A DNA stretch of 64,000 bases from Gammaproteobacteria bacterium (GCA_015490755.1 WFXF01000002.1:8433-72432); one strand, 5' to 3'; positions 1,051 to 54,100 are shown, counted from the stretch's first letter. Notes: generated by a model not told the origin, from the sequence alone. A program made the numbers and translations.

Positions 1051-2886
1051 ATGCAACGTCGCGATATCAAAGACCATATCAGGGAGAGTCGTAACTTTAG
1101 CCATCGATCTGCCGCGGCCCTGGTGCTTGTCGTAATTTTAGTGTCAGTAATTTTGGGAAGGCTTGTTTATTTGCAGGTTGCGAACTATGAACACTACACC
1201 ACACAAGCACAGAATAATCGGGTAAAAATTATTCCAGTCGCCCCTACCCGCGGTTTGATCTATGATCGCAATGGTGTCATTTTGGCTCAAAACCAAACTT
1301 CATTTACGCTGGAAATAATACCAGAAAAAGTGGATGACCTAGAGGTAATGCTGGCCGAGCTGCGCAGCATTATTTCTGTCAGTGATGCAGATATAGAACG
1401 TTTTTATCGAGATATGAAGCGACAGCGTCGTTTTGACAGCGTACCTTTGCGTTACTGGTTGACAGATGATGAGGTTGCAAAATTTTCAGTTGTACGATAT
1501 CGCTTTTCCGGAGTAACAATTAAAGCACGTTTGGTGCGCCATTATACTTATGGGCAGTTGACCACTCATGTGTTGGGGTATGTTGCACGCATCAATGAAA
1601 AAGAGCAAAAACAGGTTGATGAGTCTAACTATAGTGCAACAAATTATATTGGAAAAACAGGCGTTGAAAAGTATTACGAAACCCAGCTGCATGGCCAGGT
1701 AGGTTATGAAAAAATAGAAGCTAATGTTCAGGGGCGCGTTTTACGTATTTTAGAGCGTACAGTGCCGGTGGCGGGTGATAGCCTGAATTTAACTCTTGAT
1801 ATTGATTTACAGATTGTTGCGAGCCAGGCATTGAATAAGTATCGGGGGGCTGTGGTGGCCATTAAGCCTGAAACGGGCGAAATTTTAGCCTTTGTGAGTA
1901 TGCCGAGCTACGATCCTAACCAGTATACCGTTGGGTTTGGTCATGCGGCATATAAAGCGCTGCTTGAATCACCCGATCGTCCACTTTTTAATCGTGCTTT
2001 ACGTGGCCGCTATCCCCCAGGATCTACTGTCAAACCCTTTGTAGGGTTGGCAGGGTTGCAATTTAAGGAGGCGCGGCAGGAGGTTTATTGCCCCGGCTGG
2101 TTTTCATTAGAGGGGGATGACCACCGTTATCGTGACTGGAAGCAGACCGGTCATGATATGACGTCACTGAAAAAAGCAATTGTAGAGTCATGTGACGTTT
2201 ATTTCTATGATTTGGCGTTACGTTTGGGTATTGACCGGATTTCACCTTTTATGAAGCAGTTTGGCTTTGGTTTACTCACTGAGGTTGATATCAGTGGTGA
2301 ATTAAGCGGTTTGATGCCATCAAGGCAGTGGAAACGAGCCGAACGCTATCGTATATGGTTTCCAGGGGAGACTTTAATCACAGGGATTGGTCAGGGGTTT
2401 ATGTTATCAACACCATTGCAACTAGCTTCATCGACAGCAGCGCTGGCAAATAATGGCATTCAAATGAAGCCGCATATTGTTGCATCCACATCGGTGGCTG
2501 GCAGAATGGCTCCAATTGTCAAGCCGCCCGAATTGTTGCACAAAGTGACTAATCTGAATGAAAGTAATATGAGTTATATTATTTCTGCGATGCGCAGTGT
2601 TGTGCACAGCTCAACAGGGAGTGCCCGAAAAATTTCTCATAACTTAACATACGATATTGCGGGAAAAACGGGAACATCACAGGTTTTCGGTATCAAGCAG
2701 GATGAGGTGTATGTCAAAGAAGAAATTGCAGAAAGATTGCGCGATCATGCGTTGTTTATCGCATTTGCGCCTATCGAACACCCAAAGATTGCGATTGCAG
2801 TCGTGGTCGAAAATGGGGGGAGTGGCGGCGACGTTGCTGCACCGATTGCGAGGCAGGTCATGGATGCTTATCTGAAAAAACAGTGA
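1051..2886 (+). CDS. mrdA: peptidoglycan D,D-transpeptidase, penicillin-binding protein 2
   Basis: 611 aa with an N-terminal TM anchor, a PBP dimerisation domain and a transpeptidase domain with STVK, SCD and KTG(T) motifs. Followed by rodA. Confidence 0.93.
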   Translation: MQRRDIKDHIRESRNFSHRSAAALVLVVILVSVILGRLVYLQVANYEHYTTQAQNNRVKIIPVAPTRGLIYDRNGVILAQNQTSFTLEIIPEKVDDLEVMLAELRSIISVSDADIERFYRDMKRQRRFDSVPLRYWLTDDEVAKFSVVRYRFSGVTIKARLVRHYTYGQLTTHVLGYVARINEKEQKQVDESNYSATNYIGKTGVEKYYETQLHGQVGYEKIEANVQGRVLRILERTVPVAGDSLNLTLDIDLQIVASQALNKYRGAVVAIKPETGEILAFVSMPSYDPNQYTVGFGHAAYKALLESPDRPLFNRALRGRYPPGSTVKPFVGLAGLQFKEARQEVYCPGWFSLEGDDHRYRDWKQTGHDMTSLKKAIVESCDVYFYDLALRLGIDRISPFMKQFGFGLLTEVDISGELSGLMPSRQWKRAERYRIWFPGETLITGIGQGFMLSTPLQLASSTAALANNGIQMKPHIVASTSVAGRMAPIVKPPELLHKVTNLNESNMSYIISAMRSVVHSSTGSARKISHNLTYDIAGKTGTSQVFGIKQDEVYVKEEIAERLRDHALFIAFAPIEHPKIAIAVVVENGGSGGDVAAPIARQVMDAYLKKQ

Positions 2887-2899
2887 TGACAGCATAGTT

Positions 2900-4036
2900 A
2901 TGGCAAATATGAATTATGAATCACACTCATATTGGAGTGGTAGTGCAAGCAAACGCTGGTTTATGACGCGATTGCATCTGGATTGGCCATTGACTGTGGG
3001 GTTGGTTCTTTTGTCAATTGTAGGGTTGTTTATCCTCTATAGCGCAAGCGGTCAGGATATGGCCTCTATCGAGAGGCAGGGGATTCGTCTGGGGCTGGCT
3101 TTTGCCGTGATGATTGCAGTAGCACAGATCAATCCTTATCAAATCCAGCGATGGGCACCGTGGATATTTGGCCTGGGGGTGATTTTGTTAATCGCCGTGC
3201 TGATTTTTGGAGTGATCGGAAAAGGTGCACAGCGCTGGCTGGATTTTGGTTTTTTTCGTTTTCAACCGTCAGAATTAATGAAAATCGCAGTGCCTATGAT
3301 GGTGGCATGGTATGTCGCCGATCGGCCTCTACCGCCTAAGTCAAAAAGAGCGTTTGGTGCCTTGTTATTGATATTAGTGCCTACTTTTTTGATTTCCCGG
3401 CAGCCTGATCTGGGAACATCGTTATTGATTGCTTCTGCAGGGCTCTGGGTGCTTTTTTTATCGGGTATTCGTAAACGTGTGATCGGGGGAGCCATTTTGC
3501 TGGCACTAGCATTTGCCCCTGCTCTCTGGATGACAATGCATGATTATCAGCGTTCTCGAGTCTTGATGTTTCTAAATCCGCAAAATGACCCGCTGGGGGC
3601 GGGTTATCATATTATTCAGTCGAAAATTGCGATTGGTTCGGGGGGGATCTATGGTAAGGGTTGGTTGAATGGCAGTCAGTCGCAATTAGAATTTTTACCT
3701 GAGCGTTCAACCGATTTTATTTTTGCAGTTTTTAGTGAAGAGTTTGGCCTGTTGGGTATTTTTCTTCTGTTGATGCTTTATCTGTTTATCATTGTGCGAG
3801 GGCTATATATCGCGACGCAGGCGCAAACTTCATTTAATCGATTGCTGGCAGGGAGCTTGATTCTCACTTTTTTTGTTTACATCTTTGTCAATATAGGTAT
3901 GGTGACAGGTTTGCTGCCTGTTGTGGGAGTACCTCTACCCTTGGTTAGTTATGGAGGAACATCAATGGTGACCTTGATGGCTGCATTTGGTGTTTTGATG
4001 TCCATTCATACGCATCGGCGTTTACTGGTGCGTTAA
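2900..4036 (+). CDS. mrdB: SEDS-family peptidoglycan glycosyltransferase RodA
   Basis: 378-aa polytopic membrane protein of the FtsW/RodA family. Conserved position after mrdA. Confidence 0.93.
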   Translation: MANMNYESHSYWSGSASKRWFMTRLHLDWPLTVGLVLLSIVGLFILYSASGQDMASIERQGIRLGLAFAVMIAVAQINPYQIQRWAPWIFGLGVILLIAVLIFGVIGKGAQRWLDFGFFRFQPSELMKIAVPMMVAWYVADRPLPPKSKRAFGALLLILVPTFLISRQPDLGTSLLIASAGLWVLFLSGIRKRVIGGAILLALAFAPALWMTMHDYQRSRVLMFLNPQNDPLGAGYHIIQSKIAIGSGGIYGKGWLNGSQSQLEFLPERSTDFIFAVFSEEFGLLGIFLLLMLYLFIIVRGLYIATQAQTSFNRLLAGSLILTFFVYIFVNIGMVTGLLPVVGVPLPLVSYGGTSMVTLMAAFGVLMSIHTHRRLLVR

Positions 4037-29918: not shown

Positions 29919-30923
29919 TTATTTTACCTGATCCGTTTGCTTGATTTTCTTCAAATATATAATCGATGCTCTTCGGTTCTCATCATCTGGATAGACACGA
30001 CCGGAGGTGAGGCAAGTAAAAATATGTTTGAAAACTTCGCCGGGAGTGCCTTTTTTGGTTCCAGAGCGAAAATAGGAGTGGCCTTTGGGGCGGTCATATG
30101 CACTATTAACATCATCGCAATCAACTCGATATACATTTCTTGGTGTTTTCTCTATATCTTCCGGGCCGGTATGACCTAACCTGCGAGATGCAATTTTATT
30201 TTTAAGGTTTGAAACTTTGCTTGCTCGAAGTGCCAGGTCATCCGATGCGTGATAAACAATAACATTACGTGAAGTATGGCAGATTAATTCTCCAGGCTCA
30301 CCTTTGTGAAGTGTTTCATTGACTACATCAGCAGCGACCATGAAGGTGTTTCTAAAAATCAGGGGCAACCCTTTGGGCAGGTCATATTTGCCCCAGACGG
30401 ATAATGTTTCTCGTAGAACACGGTTCCCCATAGAGTGAGCTAATAAGTTGACTCTTTTCAGGCAGGGTTCATCCTGAGGGTTATATTTTTCAGAATTACG
30501 CCATGCTATGAATTTTTCTAATACTCTTGCAAAAGAGAAGGCACTTTGGTCAGCAGCTTTTTGATCATCCCAATAATCCTTGATAATTCCTAAATCGTTG
30601 TCGCATGGCCAAACGATGGGGATGACTAGAATTTCACCCTTTTTAGTTTTTTCACAAAGGTTTTGAAATTCATTAACGGCAGAAAACACATCTTCAGGAA
30701 GGTTGGAAAACCCATGGATGTATATAAGAATCTGGCGACATTCCGACCCTTTTAGCCGACTTAAAAACTCAATACTGCCAATCTCTTTGTACTCTTTTTC
30801 AGATAAACGTTCACAGAAAAATACTGAATTGCTTGCTGCATTATTATTTAGGTCAAAATCAAAATTTCGTCCAACCCGGGTTCGAATGCTCTGTTTTGGG
30901 AATCGGTTTGTAATAAAAATCAT
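29919..30923 (-). CDS. alpha/beta-hydrolase fold protein (putative esterase/lipase, DUF900-like). It is an orphan and AT-rich.
   Basis: 334 aa with the nucleophile elbow AHSMG (GxSxG-type), IYIHGF upstream, and candidate Asp/His downstream. It sits where nadD would normally precede rsfS. Confidence 0.7.
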   Translation of the reverse strand: MIFITNRFPKQSIRTRVGRNFDFDLNNNAASNSVFFCERLSEKEYKEIGSIEFLSRLKGSECRQILIYIHGFSNLPEDVFSAVNEFQNLCEKTKKGEILVIPIVWPCDNDLGIIKDYWDDQKAADQSAFSFARVLEKFIAWRNSEKYNPQDEPCLKRVNLLAHSMGNRVLRETLSVWGKYDLPKGLPLIFRNTFMVAADVVNETLHKGEPGELICHTSRNVIVYHASDDLALRASKVSNLKNKIASRRLGHTGPEDIEKTPRNVYRVDCDDVNSAYDRPKGHSYFRSGTKKGTPGEVFKHIFTCLTSGRVYPDDENRRASIIYLKKIKQTDQVK

Positions 30924-30953
30924 TTTAATTTCTCTCCTTATAAAAATTAAGCT
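30824..30953. repeat. copy 1 of a 130-bp direct duplication (the first 33 codons of the hydrolase gene plus 30 bp upstream)
   Basis: Near-identical, with a single 1-nt indel, to 32124-32253. Confidence 0.9.
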
Positions 30954-31020
30954 CTGAACTTTGAACCGAAGTAAAAGAGCAAGTCAGAGTGTAGAAGTTA
31001 TTTCGTGAACGTTCCTAAGT

Positions 31021-31110
31021 GCCGTGTTAAGTGGTTTTGCTTTTCACTATAAGGATATCAGTTTGAAAAACGGTTTTGGTGACCCTAATAATCTGCATAT
31101 GTTTCTTTGA
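31021..31110 (+). pseudogene. fragment paralogous to the C-terminal part of the 185-aa membrane protein at 32905-33462
   Basis: About 80% nucleotide identity to 33247-33336. It translates to AVLSGFAFHYKDISLKNGFGDPNNLHMFL*, against AVLSGFAFHYEDINLAGGFGDPDNLHMLLG in the intact gene. Confidence 0.4.
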
Positions 31111-31120
31111 GTTTTGGATG

Positions 31121-31148
31121 TTGATTGTAATAAATCTAATGTTATAAT
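31121..31148 (+). promoter_or_regulatory. candidate sigma-70 promoter of the TA operon
   Basis: TTGATT, then a 16-nt spacer, then TATAAT, ending 38 nt upstream of the antitoxin ATG. An AAGAGG RBS lies at 31175-31180. Confidence 0.4.
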
Positions 31149-31186
31149 GTGTATCTAATGTATGCACAGAAAAAAGAGGTTATCTT

Positions 31187-31450
31187 ATGAGCAAAACCGC
31201 ATCTATCAATATGCGTGTTGAGCCTAGCCAGCACGAACTTTTAACAAAGGCATCAAGAATTCTACATAAAGATAGAAGTGCCTTTATTTTAGATATTGCC
31301 TGTCGAGAAGCAAAAAATGTACTGCTGGATCAACGTTTGTTTTTATTAGAAAGTGAGGCTTTTGAAAAGTTTGAGCAGGCTTTAAATACTCCACTGGCTG
31401 AAAACAGTAGACTAGAGCAACTTATGGCTGAGCCGTCACCGTGGGATTAA
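31187..31450 (+). CDS. DUF1778-family antitoxin of the TacA/AtaR/KacA type (RHH fold)
   Basis: 87 aa. INMRVEPSQHELLTKAS…SAFILD…A…VL… matches the DUF1778 consensus. It overlaps the toxin gene by 10 bp. Confidence 0.88.
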   Translation: MSKTASINMRVEPSQHELLTKASRILHKDRSAFILDIACREAKNVLLDQRLFLLESEAFEKFEQALNTPLAENSRLEQLMAEPSPWD

Positions 31451-31938
31451 TAAAAAAACCTGAATTACTTGATAGCAAACATAATGTTTTAGGCTTTAAC
31501 TGTGGTAATGAAACCTTAAATGATTGGTTAAAAAAGAAGGCTTTAAAAAATCAAAGGCAGGGAGCAAGTAAAGCCTTTGTTATTTGTGATGACATACAGG
31601 TTGTTGGTTACTACGCTTTGGCAACAGGCAGTGTGGAAAGAATAAATGCACCCAAGTCTTTAGCACGAAATATGCCGAACCCTATACCTGTTATTGTTCT
31701 TGGCAGGTTGGCGATTGACCAGCAGTTTCATGGTAAAAAACTTGGTTCAGCACTACTTAAAGATGCCATAAAACGTACTATTTATATATCTGAAAATGTA
31801 GGTGTAAAGGCTTTACTGGTGCATGCAATTTCAGAAGAAGCTAAAAGATTTTACCTTCACCACAATTTTATTGAATCACCTATAGAATCAATGACGTTAT
31901 TATTATCAATGAATAATAAGAAAAGACTTATAATCTAG
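31441..31938 (+). CDS. GNAT-family toxin (aminoacyl-tRNA-acetylating, TacT/AtaT/KacT-like)
   Basis: 165 aa with an acetyl-CoA binding segment (…QQFHGKKLGSALLKDAIKR…) and the conserved pairing with an upstream DUF1778 antitoxin. Confidence 0.86.
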   Translation: MGLIKKPELLDSKHNVLGFNCGNETLNDWLKKKALKNQRQGASKAFVICDDIQVVGYYALATGSVERINAPKSLARNMPNPIPVIVLGRLAIDQQFHGKKLGSALLKDAIKRTIYISENVGVKALLVHAISEEAKRFYLHHNFIESPIESMTLLLSMNNKKRLII

Positions 31939-32100
31939 GAGCCTGTCCGAGAATGAAAAGTCTACTGCGGAAAATCCATTTCGGCCATATTTGGTGTAAA
32001 TTTTCGTTAAATAGAACAACTATTCGCCTCAAATTTACACCAAATCTGCCATCAAAATGGCTTTCCCTCGCTACGACTTCCATTCTCGGACAGGCTCCTA
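31938..32100. repeat. 163-bp palindromic MITE-like element with 17-bp terminal inverted repeats (GAGCCTGTCCGAGAATG … CATTCTCGGACAGGCTC)
   Basis: Left and right TIRs, and internal inverted segments (ATTTGGTGTAAATTT / AAATTTACACCAAAT), are directly visible. It starts at the toxin stop codon. A second partial copy lies at 51147-51254. Confidence 0.7.
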
Positions 32101-32123
32101 GTCATGGTACTTTACCAATGAAC

Positions 32124-32253
32124 TGAATTGCTTTGCCGCATTATTATTTAGGTCAAAATCAAAATTGCGTCCAACTCGGGTTCGAATGCTCTGTTTTGGG
32201 AATCGGTTTGTAATAAAAATCATTTTAATTTCTCTCCTTATAAAAATTAAGCT
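32124..32253. repeat. copy 2 of the 130-bp direct duplication. It carries a truncated hydrolase start (46-codon relic ORF on the minus strand).
   Basis: Matches 30824-30953. Confidence 0.9.
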
Positions 32254-32904: not shown

Positions 32905-33462
32905 ATGATGAAAAAGTATTTAGCGATCTGCTGCATATTATTTAGCTGGAATTGCTCTGCTCAAGCTCAGGAATACATGCCAGAACACTTTTTGGATTTG
33001 TCTGTTAAGCCGCAACCGTATACATCCTATATTCAATTAGCCCAGCTTGATACGGCAAATTTAAATGCTACCCATGAAGGCCATAATGAAGAGAAGAAAC
33101 CCCTGTTTAAATCCAGGCCTGTGACTTTGAATAAAGTGCATAAATATCTTGGTTACGCTTCAATGGTAAGTGCTGTATTGACAGGGTTGTCACCCAAAAC
33201 AGCCGGGGGTCCTCATGAGCTTTTTGGTACAGCCGCAGCCGCTTTTGGTGCGGCAGCTGTGTTAAGCGGTTTTGCTTTTCATTATGAAGATATCAATTTG
33301 GCGGGTGGTTTTGGCGACCCGGATAACTTGCATATGCTTCTTGGCATTTTAGGAACCGCAGGTTATGCCGTTGCTGTGAGTAGTGGTGAAGATGGTGGGC
33401 ATGGTGGTCCTGGTACTCTTGGTGCGCTCAGCATGGCTATGGCTATTAAATTAACCTGGTAG
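32905..33462 (+). CDS. hypothetical protein: signal peptide, a roughly 70-aa periplasmic segment, then Gly/Ala-rich TM helices flanked by His residues
   Basis: 185 aa with no recognisable family. Tightly coupled (a 12-bp gap) between the b561 gene and the c-type cytochromes. Confidence 0.6.
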   Translation: MMKKYLAICCILFSWNCSAQAQEYMPEHFLDLSVKPQPYTSYIQLAQLDTANLNATHEGHNEEKKPLFKSRPVTLNKVHKYLGYASMVSAVLTGLSPKTAGGPHELFGTAAAAFGAAAVLSGFAFHYEDINLAGGFGDPDNLHMLLGILGTAGYAVAVSSGEDGGHGGPGTLGALSMAMAIKLTW

Positions 33463-49319: not shown

Positions 49320-51038
49320 TTAACTCGTAATTACTCGGTTGATTTCATCCAGGGTTGTTAAACCTTGAAGCACTTTTTTAAGTCCGGACATTCTTAAATC
49401 GGCCACTCCCTCTTTTTTCGATAGTTCGGCGAGTTGCAGGGCGTTGCCACCTTCCATGATGAGTTTGCTCATTGTTTCTGAAACAGGCATGACCTGATAA
49501 ATTCCAACCCGCCCTTTATAGCCTTGGTGGCATTGATCACAACCCACGGCCCCATATATCGCTAACTCCTCTAGTGTACCCTCTTCGAAGCCTTCTTTTA
49601 AGAGTGCTTTTTTTGGAATATCAACCACTTGTTTGCAGTGAGGGCACAATCGCCTGGCCAGACGTTGAGCGATAATAAGAGAAACGGATGAAGCCACATT
49701 AAATGGGGCTACACCCATATTAAGTAAACGAGTGAGTGTTTGCGGTGCATCGTTGGTATGCAAGGTTGAGAGCACCATATGGCCGGTCTGTGCAGCTTTA
49801 ATAGCGATTTCCGCTGTTTCAAGGTCACGAATCTCACCCACCATAATAATGTCAGGATCTTGTCTTAAAAAAGATTTGAGGGCAGCTGAAAAGGTGAGTC
49901 CTACTTTGGGTCTTACATTGACCTGATTGATGCCGGGCAAATTGATTTCGGCAGGGTCTTCAGCCGTTGAAATGTTACGCTCTTCTGTATTAAGGATATT
50001 CAATCCTGTGTAGAGTGAAACTGTTTTACCGCTTCCCGTAGGGCCAGTGACCAGGATCATTCCGCTCGGTTTTTTCAGTGCATTGAGGTAGAGCGTTTTT
50101 TGGTCTTCTTCATAGCCCAGGGCATCAATACCTAGTTGAGCGCTACTGGGGTCAAGAATACGCATGACAATTTTTTCGCCAAACAGTGTCGGGCACGTGC
50201 TGACACGAAAATCGATGGCTCGATGTTTTGATAGAACCATACGCATTCTTCCATCTTGTGGAACACGCCGCTCTGAAACATCCAGCTGTGACATGACCTT
50301 GATGCGTGCGGCTATTTTTAGTGTCAGGCTGACAGGGGGGGCAGCGGCTTCAATGAGAATGCCATCGACCCTGTAACGAATTCGATAGAACTTTTCAAAG
50401 GGCTCAAAGTGCAGGTCGGAAGCATTTTTGTTGATCGCATCAAGCAAGATTTTATTGACAAAACGAACAATGGGAGTGTCATTGATCTCATTTTCACTTA
50501 AATCTTCATCGGACTCTTCATGGCTACTTGAGATGTCCAGGTCATCAAGCTCTTCATCATCAAGCCCGGCCATGGAGGTATCCATTGCCTCCAGCGTTTT
50601 TTGTATGGTTGTTCGTAGCTTGTCCTCTTCAACCAGTATGGCTTGAATATGGGCATCGGCGTGGAACTTTATTTCATCCAGGGCACCCAGGTTAAGAGGG
50701 TCAGAGACCGCTACAAACAGACGGTTTCCACGCTTGTATAACGGTAATAGATTGTGCTTGCGTATGAGCGTCTCTGACACCAGTTCGATGGGAGCCATCT
50801 CCATATCCATCGCTTCCAGGTCAAAGAACGGGATGCCAAACTCTCTGGAAGCCGCTGATGCAATTGTAAGGCTGTTAACTATTTTGTTTTCTACCAAATA
50901 GCTGATGAGTGGCAGTGTTGCTTCATCTGCTTTTTGTTGATGTTCAAGCGCACTTTCATGATCAAACACACCATCCATAACAAGGCAGCGGGATAAGCCG
51001 GTGAGTTGATCCGTTGTTGTGCTTTTTGTTTCGTCCAT
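49320..51038 (-). CDS. pilB: type IV pilus assembly ATPase PilB
   Basis: An N-terminal GSPII-like domain, Walker A (GPTGSGKT) and a tetra-Cys motif (CPHC…CDQC). Confidence 0.95.
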   Translation of the reverse strand: MDETKSTTTDQLTGLSRCLVMDGVFDHESALEHQQKADEATLPLISYLVENKIVNSLTIASAASREFGIPFFDLEAMDMEMAPIELVSETLIRKHNLLPLYKRGNRLFVAVSDPLNLGALDEIKFHADAHIQAILVEEDKLRTTIQKTLEAMDTSMAGLDDEELDDLDISSSHEESDEDLSENEINDTPIVRFVNKILLDAINKNASDLHFEPFEKFYRIRYRVDGILIEAAAPPVSLTLKIAARIKVMSQLDVSERRVPQDGRMRMVLSKHRAIDFRVSTCPTLFGEKIVMRILDPSSAQLGIDALGYEEDQKTLYLNALKKPSGMILVTGPTGSGKTVSLYTGLNILNTEERNISTAEDPAEINLPGINQVNVRPKVGLTFSAALKSFLRQDPDIIMVGEIRDLETAEIAIKAAQTGHMVLSTLHTNDAPQTLTRLLNMGVAPFNVASSVSLIIAQRLARRLCPHCKQVVDIPKKALLKEGFEEGTLEELAIYGAVGCDQCHQGYKGRVGIYQVMPVSETMSKLIMEGGNALQLAELSKKEGVADLRMSGLKKVLQGLTTLDEINRVITS

Positions 51039-51146: not shown

Positions 51147-51254
51147 TTTTTCGGTATTTTGAGGCGAATAGTTGTTCTATTTAACGAAAATTTACACCAA
51201 ATCTGCCTCAAAATGGCTTTCCCTCGCTACGACTTCCATTCTCGGACAGCCTCC
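51147..51254. repeat. second, partial copy of the MITE-like element (right half and TIR)
   Basis: …TTTACACCAAATCTGCC[T]CAAAATGGCTTTCCCTCGCTACGACTTCCATTCTCGGACAG[C]CTCC is almost identical to 32048-32100. The centre is inverted relative to copy 1. Confidence 0.65.
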
Positions 51255-51342
51255 TGGCGGGCGAAGCTCGGCAGGCAGTGTAAACGTCATCATAATCATA
51301 AAATAATCGGCAGGGACCTGTTTCTGAGACCGCCGCTCAACT

Positions 51343-52650
51343 TTATTTATGACACAGCTCTTCAATTTCGGCGACAGTTTTTGGTGCCGCTTGTGTAAGG
51401 ACTTCATTTCCATCATTCGTTACTAATATATTGTCTTCAATACGAATGCCGATATTCCACCACTTTTTTGCAACGTCTTTGTTGTTGGCTGCGATATAAA
51501 GCCCTGGTTCAATTGTTAAAACCATACCGGGCTCAAAAACTCGCCAATTTTTATCTCGCTTGTAATCACCGGCATCATGCACATCCATACCGAGCCAGTG
51601 GCCGGTACGATGCATGTAAAAAGGTTTGTAGGCCTTCTGCTTTATGAGTTCACGCGGCGCTCCTTTTAATAGACCCAGCTTAATGAGCCCTTTGGTGAGT
51701 TCCCGTATAGCGGCAGTATGTGGGGCATTCCAATGGTTTCCTGGCTTGACCTTTTTGATTGCAGCCAATTGCGCTTTGAGAACAACTTCATAAAGGGCAC
51801 GTTGTTCAGCATTAAAGCGGCCATTAATGGGGAAAGTGCGTGTTATATCTGCGGCGTAAAAGTCATACTCTACGCCAGCATCTATCAATAAAAGCTCTCC
51901 GTCATTTAGAGGCATACTGTTTTCTGTGTAGTGCAAAATACATGCGTTTTTACCTCCGGCGACAATGGAGGGGTAGGCTGCATCACGACAGCCCATGCGG
52001 TTAAATTCGTGTGTGATTTCAGCTTCGATCTCATACTCCATCATGCCGGGCTGACAACATTGCATGGCGCGCCGATGGGCGCTGGCTGAAATATCTGCGG
52101 CGGTACGCATGGCTTTAATTTCTGCGCGGCTTTTAAAGAGGCGCATTTCATGCAGTAAGGGTTCAATGCCAATGAAGTCGGTGGGAGCGCTGATACCTTG
52201 ACGTGCCATTGCGCGTACCTGTTTAACCCAGCCCATAAGCCTTTGGTCGAAATCCTGATTCTCTCCCAATGTGCAATAAATCTGTTGGCGATCTTTAAGG
52301 AGTTCAGGGAGGTGTTTGTCTATCTCCTTGATCGACAGTGCTTCATCGGCACCCCATTGATTTCGAGCACCTTCCAAACCCGCACGTTTACCGTTCCAGA
52401 TCTCTTTTTCTTTATCTCGTTCACGACAAAATAGAACAAATTGCCCCTGTTTACGCCCTGGAATGAGAGCAAGAATGGCTTCAGGTTCGGCAAAGCCGGT
52501 GAGGTAAGCAAAATTGCTGTTTGGGCGAAAAGGGTAATCAACATCACTGTTACGCTGTTGCTCTGGTGAGGTAGGCAAAATAGCAATATTGCCCACGCCG
52601 ATTTTTTTCATGAGCCGTTTCCGGCGCTGGAAAAACTCTTTTTTATCCAT
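51343..52650 (-). CDS. pepP: Xaa-Pro aminopeptidase
   Basis: An M24B fold with an N-terminal AMP_N domain and metal ligands (D, D, H, E, E). Confidence 0.93.
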   Translation of the reverse strand: MDKKEFFQRRKRLMKKIGVGNIAILPTSPEQQRNSDVDYPFRPNSNFAYLTGFAEPEAILALIPGRKQGQFVLFCRERDKEKEIWNGKRAGLEGARNQWGADEALSIKEIDKHLPELLKDRQQIYCTLGENQDFDQRLMGWVKQVRAMARQGISAPTDFIGIEPLLHEMRLFKSRAEIKAMRTAADISASAHRRAMQCCQPGMMEYEIEAEITHEFNRMGCRDAAYPSIVAGGKNACILHYTENSMPLNDGELLLIDAGVEYDFYAADITRTFPINGRFNAEQRALYEVVLKAQLAAIKKVKPGNHWNAPHTAAIRELTKGLIKLGLLKGAPRELIKQKAYKPFYMHRTGHWLGMDVHDAGDYKRDKNWRVFEPGMVLTIEPGLYIAANNKDVAKKWWNIGIRIEDNILVTNDGNEVLTQAAPKTVAEIEELCHK

Positions 52651-53862: not shown

Positions 53863-53919
53863 GCTGTCAAAGCGAATGGTTCTGGGTTAAACTAAAAACC
53901 AAGGCATATTCTGCAACGT

Positions 53920-54100
53920 TTGCCAGCTTGTCTGAGATGGTCTTGGGCCTAATTATATCTCTCCGGGAACGCGTCCCCGATGCTGTTGTGCATGCCCGTT
54001 TTACGGGTCGCCTGATGCATCATATGTGTGCCCACTTGAACCCTTGGTTCAAGACTGATGACAGCAGCGGCGCTTGTGGATATGCCGCTCTTTTTGGTTC
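53920..54100 (+). ncRNA. ssrS: 6S RNA (SsrS); ends are approximate
   Basis: Lies between zapA and ygfA. It contains UCUGAGAUG near the 5' end, and ACAUGUGUGCCCACUUGAACCCUUGGUUCAAGACUGAUGACAGCAGCGGCGC resembling the E. coli 6S 3' half (…CACCUUGAACCAAGGGUUCAAGGGUUACAGCCUGCGGCGGC…). A hairpin (AGCGGC…GCCGCU, 54066-54089) is followed by TTTTT. Confidence 0.6.

Follow-up and report, generated by a model that had tools for sequence, protein, structure and literature searches.

A TacAT-type toxin-antitoxin cassette on a patchwork insert with a 132-nt target duplication and a MITE in the toxin stop codon of a gammaproteobacterium

Here, we show that the window, i.e., the whole 64,000-nt stretch of gammaproteobacterial DNA analysed in this study, carries a DUF1778 antitoxin gene and an overlapping GNAT acetyltransferase gene which, judged on sequence, display every feature by which the DUF1778-GNAT family and its TacT branch can be recognised. 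The two genes very probably constitute an active TacAT-type (DUF1778-GNAT) type II toxin-antitoxin (TA) module. We propose that the module would have arrived on a 1.0-kb patchwork fragment that settled between a DUF900 hydrolase gene and a cytochrome b561 gene and duplicated 132 nt in doing so, and that a CTAG-targeting MITE would have landed in the toxin stop codon later. The occupied site and three empty sites, the junctions, the duplicated target, a donor fragment and the later MITE are visible together, and the locus is a usable example of minimal TA cassettes spreading without mobility genes of their own.

ORF calling across the window placed the antitoxin ORF at 31187-31450 (+ strand, 87 aa, ATG start) and the toxin ORF at 31441-31938 (+ strand, 165 aa, GTG start), the two overlapping by 10 nt (GTGGGATTAA). 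This is exactly the layout given in the preliminary description, which had claimed an 87-aa DUF1778 antitoxin overlapping a 165-aa GNAT protein by 10 bp, and the Pfam assignments agree with it as well. The GTG start is credible because the alignment with TacT begins at M1-G2 of both proteins and the toxin frame holds no ATG before residue 78. Residues 7-81 of the antitoxin, a tacA-like ribbon-helix-helix protein, match the 80-position Pfam model TacA1/DUF1778 (PF08681) with E = 1.8e-21, and its PDB matches are 7F37_C (3e-19), 7ZG6_A (4.6e-17) and 7AK7_C (1.6e-12), whereas the antitoxin chains of AtaRT and KacAT were reached only at E-values of 5e-3 to 8e-3. The DUF1778 gene lies directly upstream of the acetyltransferase gene in one operon, the arrangement that characterises the family.

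The tacT-like toxin matches three acetyltransferase models in Pfam, all above the curated cut-offs (Acetyltransf_7, 7e-8; Acetyltransf_10, 1.9e-7; Acetyltransf_1, 6e-5). HMM searching thereby recovered in each protein the family that had been predicted for it, PF08681 in the antitoxin and GNAT families in the toxin. A phmmer search of all PDB sequences with the toxin returned 7F36_A (6.7e-49), 5FVJ_A (8.4e-49), 7AK8_A and 7F37_B (2.4e-48), with the best six chains, TacT 5FVJ among them, spanning 1e-42 to 1e-49. KacT (5ZGN) followed at 4e-18, and the other, longer toxin chains (N-acetyltransferases of 172-196 aa; 6AJM, 6GTS and similar) at 1e-16 to 1e-18, such that, by the E-values of the PDB search, the toxin is closer to TacT than to KacT and the longer chains by about 30 orders of magnitude. 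Global identity between the toxin and TacT is 52% over 157 aligned positions, and from this identity to solved structures we infer a GNAT fold. The toxin match 7F37_B and the antitoxin match 7F37_C are partner chains of one entry, and both proteins are thus full-length homologues of the two chains of a single solved complex.

Among the matched PDB chains, only 5FVJ is tied to TacT by a paper, being the structure of TacT Y140F reported by Cheverton et al. (PMC4942678). Literature searches by PDB code for 7AK7, 7AK8, 7F36, 7F37, 7ZG6 and 9ILR yielded nothing useful for naming their chains. We take 7F37 to be the Salmonella TacAT complex and 7F36 to be a TacT structure. The latter entry is cited in papers on phage Mu Mom, an enzyme that hypermodifies DNA adenine with the help of charged tRNA; TacT-like GNAT proteins can thus serve purposes other than toxicity. 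Such a role was set aside here, given the DUF1778 partner and the 52% identity to TacT. Similarly, a role as a ribosomal-protein acetyltransferase was rejected, the NCBIfam RimI match being far below threshold (16.5 bits against a cut-off of 86.4); NCBIfam offered no specific model for either protein.

Among characterised systems, Salmonella Typhimurium TacAT (T8/A8) is the closest, with the same gene order, a DUF1778 antitoxin first and an overlapping GNAT toxin second. Sizes are also similar (toxin, 165 aa against 164-169 aa for the solved TacT-type chains; antitoxin, 87 against 92). The window module differs from its Salmonella counterpart in its 10-nt overlap with a GTG start, in two surface residues of the toxin (R77 to A and K146 to I), in a promoter and candidate operator sequences that are specific to the window subgroup, and in its host, which is no enteric pathogen but a marine or hydrothermal gammaproteobacterium that has not been cultured. 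The clade A systems, E. coli AtaRT and Klebsiella KacAT, share the architecture and the general chemistry, i.e., a DUF1778 ribbon-helix-helix antitoxin with a GNAT toxin that acetylates aminoacyl-tRNA, but are much more distant than TacAT, with toxin E-values of about 1e-17 to 1e-18. The pair had been described as TacAT/AtaRT-type; its place in the TacA/TacT family stands, with both chains matched, while the affiliation narrows to the TacT branch and excludes that of AtaT and KacT. With this finding, uncultured gammaproteobacteria of vents and the sea join the TacT branch. The TA module itself adds little, since DUF1778-GNAT pairs are abundant (the family search with the toxin gave 5231 homologues) and their mechanism is established.

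The residues on which TacT toxicity depends are largely retained. TacT loses its toxicity on substitution A93P in the acetyl-CoA pocket, on Y140F, which concerns acetyl transfer, and on any of K36E, R77E, R78E and K146E, all on the surface that binds tRNA (PMC4942678). We aligned the window toxin with TacT and 120 database homologues (122 sequences); positions A93, Y140, K36, R78 and R91 of TacT correspond to A91, Y138, K36, R76 and R89 of the window toxin, and W29 is likewise conserved. The acetyl-CoA-pocket residues, whose loss the preliminary description had named as evidence against a toxin, are hence present (A91 and Y138). Across the 122 sequences W29, R78, R91, G104 and Y140 (TacT numbering) are invariant, and K36 and A93 nearly so. 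The counterparts of R77 and K146 are A75 and I144, neither of them basic. In the alignment, A is the family majority at the first position and Q/I at the second, suggesting that R77 and K146 are peculiar to Salmonella and that their absence is not a defect here.

The mechanism proposed below is drawn by homology from the Salmonella system (PMC4942678) and from the comparison of Bikmetov et al. (PMC9177977). TacA would bind the toxin through its C-terminal part and would repress the operon by placing its ribbon-helix-helix domain on a palindrome at the -10 element. Free TacT dimer, supplied with acetyl-CoA, would acetylate charged elongator tRNA on the alpha-amino group of its amino acid; the acetylated tRNA would be unusable in elongation, translation and growth would stop, and the block would be reversible by peptidyl-tRNA hydrolase.

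Regarding the tRNA target, the TacT clade includes TacT, TacT2, TacT3, AtaT2 and GmvT; all five clade D toxins that were newly assayed, TacT and TacT2 among them, acted almost exclusively on Gly-tRNAGly, which was the only tRNA acetylated by TacT3 and AtaT2, also of clade D, whereas clade A toxins acetylated Gly and several hydrophobic aminoacyl-tRNAs (PMC9177977). Because the window toxin groups with TacT by E-value, Gly-tRNAGly would be expected as its target rather than initiator or hydrophobic aminoacyl-tRNAs, and we regard this target as probable. An active toxin with another target, whether a broad or hydrophobic aminoacyl-tRNA range like that of AtaT/ItaT or a substrate other than tRNA, would be in line with the repeated specificity shifts documented within the family (PMC9177977), with the differences at some tRNA-groove residues, and with an identity of only 52% to the nearest assayed toxin. 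We consider it unlikely, as the PDB search favours TacT over the AtaT/KacT branch by the margin given above and all tested clade D toxins are almost exclusively Gly-specific.

The module appears to carry its own expression signals. A sigma-70-type promoter, TTGATT-16-TATAAT with a TG extended -10, was located by consensus scan at 31121-31148 (+ strand). The scan match itself carries little weight, the region holding 5 promoter-like matches against 5.2 expected in shuffled sequence; what counts is that both hexamers are kept in the window and in four homologous loci (L085-L088) with unrelated genomic contexts. A Shine-Dalgarno sequence, AAGAGG, lies at 31174-31179 (+ strand), 7 nt 5' of the antitoxin ATG, and is kept in L087 and L088. 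The earlier claim that the module has a promoter and RBS of its own is upheld by these observations. At 31148-31168 (+ strand), an imperfect palindrome, TGTGTAT-N7-ATGCACA, overlaps the end of the -10 element and the likely transcription start. Its consensus, TGTGTAT-N7-ATACACA, is conserved in all five contexts, and the window version ends in ATGCACA. Given the known autoregulation of ribbon-helix-helix antitoxins, we consider this palindrome a candidate, and likely, TacA operator. The 9-mer ATCTAATGT occurs twice here, at 31134 and 31153. Rfam and tRNA scans returned nothing within or near the module.

Comparison at the DNA level with the four close homologues L085-L088, whose proteins are 78-88% identical to those of the window, gave dN/dS values of 0.11-0.23 (antitoxin) and 0.09-0.13 (toxin), with dS between 0.43 and 0.93, indicating that both genes are under purifying selection. 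DNA identity to these loci is 80-86% and runs from window position 31112/31120 to 31922/31930, a span that opens at the -35 hexamer and closes just short of the toxin stop codon. The genes around the cassette differ: Gp49/HTH genes in L085, Trm112/CTP-transferase genes in L086, and, in both L087 and L088, a metallophosphatase gene, joined in L087 by an IS. As read from these alignments, tacAT is a small horizontally moving cassette of about 0.82 kb that extends from promoter to stop. Small mobile DNA adjoins it in other genomes too: in L085, the cassette sits between two 42-nt inverted repeats (1295-1336 and 3122-3163, 93% complementary) of a repeated element, and in L087 an IS with a DDE_Tnp_1 transposase (1690-3054) begins 27 nt past the toxin stop codon. 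An integron cassette, considered for tacAT and for DUF900, was rejected, inspection by eye revealing no GTTRRRY (attC) boundaries at the ends of either the insert or the conserved cassette, with the sole GTTAAAT at the centre of the MITE; no integrase was found among the neighbouring ORFs. The role of the module might be addiction or stabilisation, persistence, or phage defence. No defence island surrounds tacAT, and PADLOC gave no match for the antitoxin, the toxin, DUF900 or orf57, and thus no support for a catalogued defence system.

How the cassette reached its present position can be read from three empty sites. L089, L090 and L091, related genomes or metagenome contigs of which the last is from a hydrothermal-vent metagenome, were found through members of the DUF900 cluster. 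Their genes run in one and the same order, YhdP, RNase G, RlmH, RsfS and DUF900, followed by divergent cytochrome b561, orf184, DUF1924 and DHC. In all three, 91 nt separate DUF900 from cytochrome b561, and neither TA module nor MITE is present. At the left junction, the match between window and empty site lasts until AAGCT (30953), where foreign DNA takes over; at the right junction, the match to the empty site resumes at ACTGAATTGC (32121). The right junction is seen solely in the assembly from which the window is taken, the other assembly of the same genome ending inside the MITE. Alignment of both junctions to the empty sites thus delimits an insert of 1167 nt (30954-32120), composed of a foreign gene fragment, tacAT, the MITE and 19 nt, with a target duplication of 132 nt. 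GC content is 33-37% across the insert compared with about 41-50% in the flanking genes.

The duplication was seen as a 121-nt direct repeat that extends to 132/133 nt with one indel (4 differences in 133 columns). The left copy (30822-30953), which matches the single copy at the empty sites, takes in 102 nt from the start of the intact DUF900 gene and 30 nt upstream of it. The right copy (32121-32253) is a dead, displaced DUF900 5' fragment, followed by the native upstream region of cytochrome b561; its first 30 DUF900 codons are identical before the sequence diverges, leaving a 41-aa ORF at 32098-32223 on the minus strand. An exact look-up of the cytochrome b561 protein gave no match.

The insert itself is a patchwork. 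Directly upstream of the tacAT cassette lies a fragment of an orf185-family gene (31021-31112, + strand; translation AVLSGFAFHYKDISLKNGFGDPNNLHMFL, then a stop), recognised by its DNA similarity: it is 78% identical to window positions 33256-33350 (E = 5e-16), within the resident orf185, a membrane-protein gene at 32905-33462, and 77-82% identical to the orthologues in L089-L091. The fragment has diverged too far to have been copied from the resident gene; accordingly, the donor was probably a relative in which the tacAT cassette stood next to, or inside, an orf185-like gene. The 67 nt at 30954-31020 matched nothing among the sequences retrieved for comparison. Judged from ORFs and Pfam, neither the insert nor its surroundings encode a recombinase or transposase. 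The patchwork insert, the long target duplication and the lack of a mobility gene favour illegitimate or homology-facilitated illegitimate recombination of incoming DNA, which would be the likeliest route, and the anatomy of the insertion calls for no new mechanism.

The 132-nt repeats could instead be read as att-like sites, with tacAT and the DUF900 5' end carried on an integrase-less circle of 1.3 kb that entered by a single crossover. The repeats do lie on either side of the insert and give the target gene back its 5' end, in the manner of integrative islands, and repeat and insert together form a unit of 1300 nt. However, a recombinase is missing from the insert and its vicinity, DUF900 sequence and comparable flanking direct repeats are absent from all four close tacAT homologues, and a patchwork insert with an unrelated gene fragment is better explained by illegitimate recombination, making this reading quite unlikely. 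It is less likely still, indeed very improbable, that the duplication records a route that minimal TA cassettes take repeatedly; if it did, small circles carrying the DUF900 5' end could integrate by single crossover wherever DUF900 occurs. Illegitimate recombination of incoming DNA remains our preferred account of how the cassette entered.

At its 3' end the module meets a MITE of 167 nt, the CTAG at both ends included, which has no ORF (31935-32101). The preliminary description had placed a MITE immediately after the module; the adjacency is correct, yet the element is not merely 3' of the module, its insertion site being the CTAG of the stop codon itself. Its arms are inverted over 47 nt, the outer 21 nt perfectly, against 0 matches expected by chance, and the predicted RNA hairpin has a folding energy of -78 kcal/mol (z = -12). 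A full-length copy, 84% identical, was found in metagenome locus L179, and a copy truncated to roughly half lies in the window at 51150-51257 (- strand), between the ORFs at 49320-51038 and 51343-52650. An exact scan found the 18-nt terminus in at least 120 metagenome contigs. Among the contigs listed, it forms about 60 inverted pairs of 79-376 nt, nearly always preceded by CTA and followed by TAG, which implies a CTAG target with duplication of TA.

Also among the contigs listed, five pairs of 1.47-1.83 kb share the TIR of the MITE, and the two longer elements examined (L097 and L115) encode transposases with DUF772, DDE_Tnp_1 and DDE_Tnp_1_6 domains. The element in the window is hence a MITE by every usual feature, i.e., it is short and ORF-less, has TIRs, occurs in multiple copies, duplicates its target and is related to transposase-bearing elements. 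From these Pfam domains, the longer elements would, in terms of the ISfinder categories, be of the IS5/IS1182 type, which inserts at CTAG. The 18-nt terminal repeat is common to the window MITE and these transposase-bearing elements of 1.47-1.83 kb; the MITE differs from them in being non-autonomous (167 nt) and in lying exactly within a stop codon.

The present TAG stop is made up of TA from the flank and the first G of the MITE, and the protein is unchanged. The CTA...TAG flanks found across the MITE family indicate that the original stop was the same TAG. Truncation of the toxin by the MITE was ruled out, as its C-terminal tail matches that of homologues of the same length, which end in ...NNKKRLTI or ...NNKKRLKV. 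The sole plausible functional effect of the MITE is to give the tacAT transcript a long 3'-terminal hairpin.

Whether the locus might be a decayed or domesticated remnant, in which the GNAT protein is non-toxic or an ordinary acetyltransferase and the DUF1778 protein merely a small regulator, deserves consideration here, given that chromosomal TA copies often lose activity, that R77 and K146 of TacT are not conserved and that the MITE has altered the 3' end of the transcript. Nonetheless, both ORFs are full length, the C-terminus resembles that of close homologues, every family-invariant residue is present in the toxin, and the dN/dS of both genes (0.09-0.23) speaks against decay. In addition, the insertion is recent enough to be absent from three related genomes, and the MITE regenerated the stop codon without altering the protein. 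A remnant is therefore highly unlikely, and an active TacAT-type module is the reading we retain.

The neighbouring DUF900 gene merits a separate comment. This gene (29919-30923, - strand; PF05990) encodes an alpha/beta-hydrolase of 334 aa. At least 80 species-level genomes (L003-L082) have a homologue, with protein identities of 65-84%; they are distributed over very different phyla, namely Desulfuromonadaceae, Planctomycetota, Verrucomicrobiota, Nitrospira, Campylobacterota, Chlorobium and Alpha-, Beta- and Gammaproteobacteria. The loci listed have no conserved neighbouring genes, and similarity at the DNA level is limited to the CDS and about 26 nt upstream. A protein scan of genome contigs found the listed loci, at least 80, to be non-syntenic with the window and to contain no syntenic empty site. 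From these comparisons, DUF900 looks like a strongly conserved, solitary and widely transferred gene.

Following the insertion, the intact DUF900 gene retains just 30 nt of its native upstream DNA, and the native intergenic region, in which its promoter presumably lies, now serves the 41-aa fragment at 32098-32223 alone. As a result, DUF900 may rely for its expression on sequences of the insert, in which promoter-like sites occur on the minus strand at 31209-31182 and 31153-31124. Elsewhere, no tRNA genes were found in the 64,000-nt window, and its sole Rfam match is a 6S (SsrS) RNA gene at 53905-54086 (+ strand; RF00013, 76 bits).
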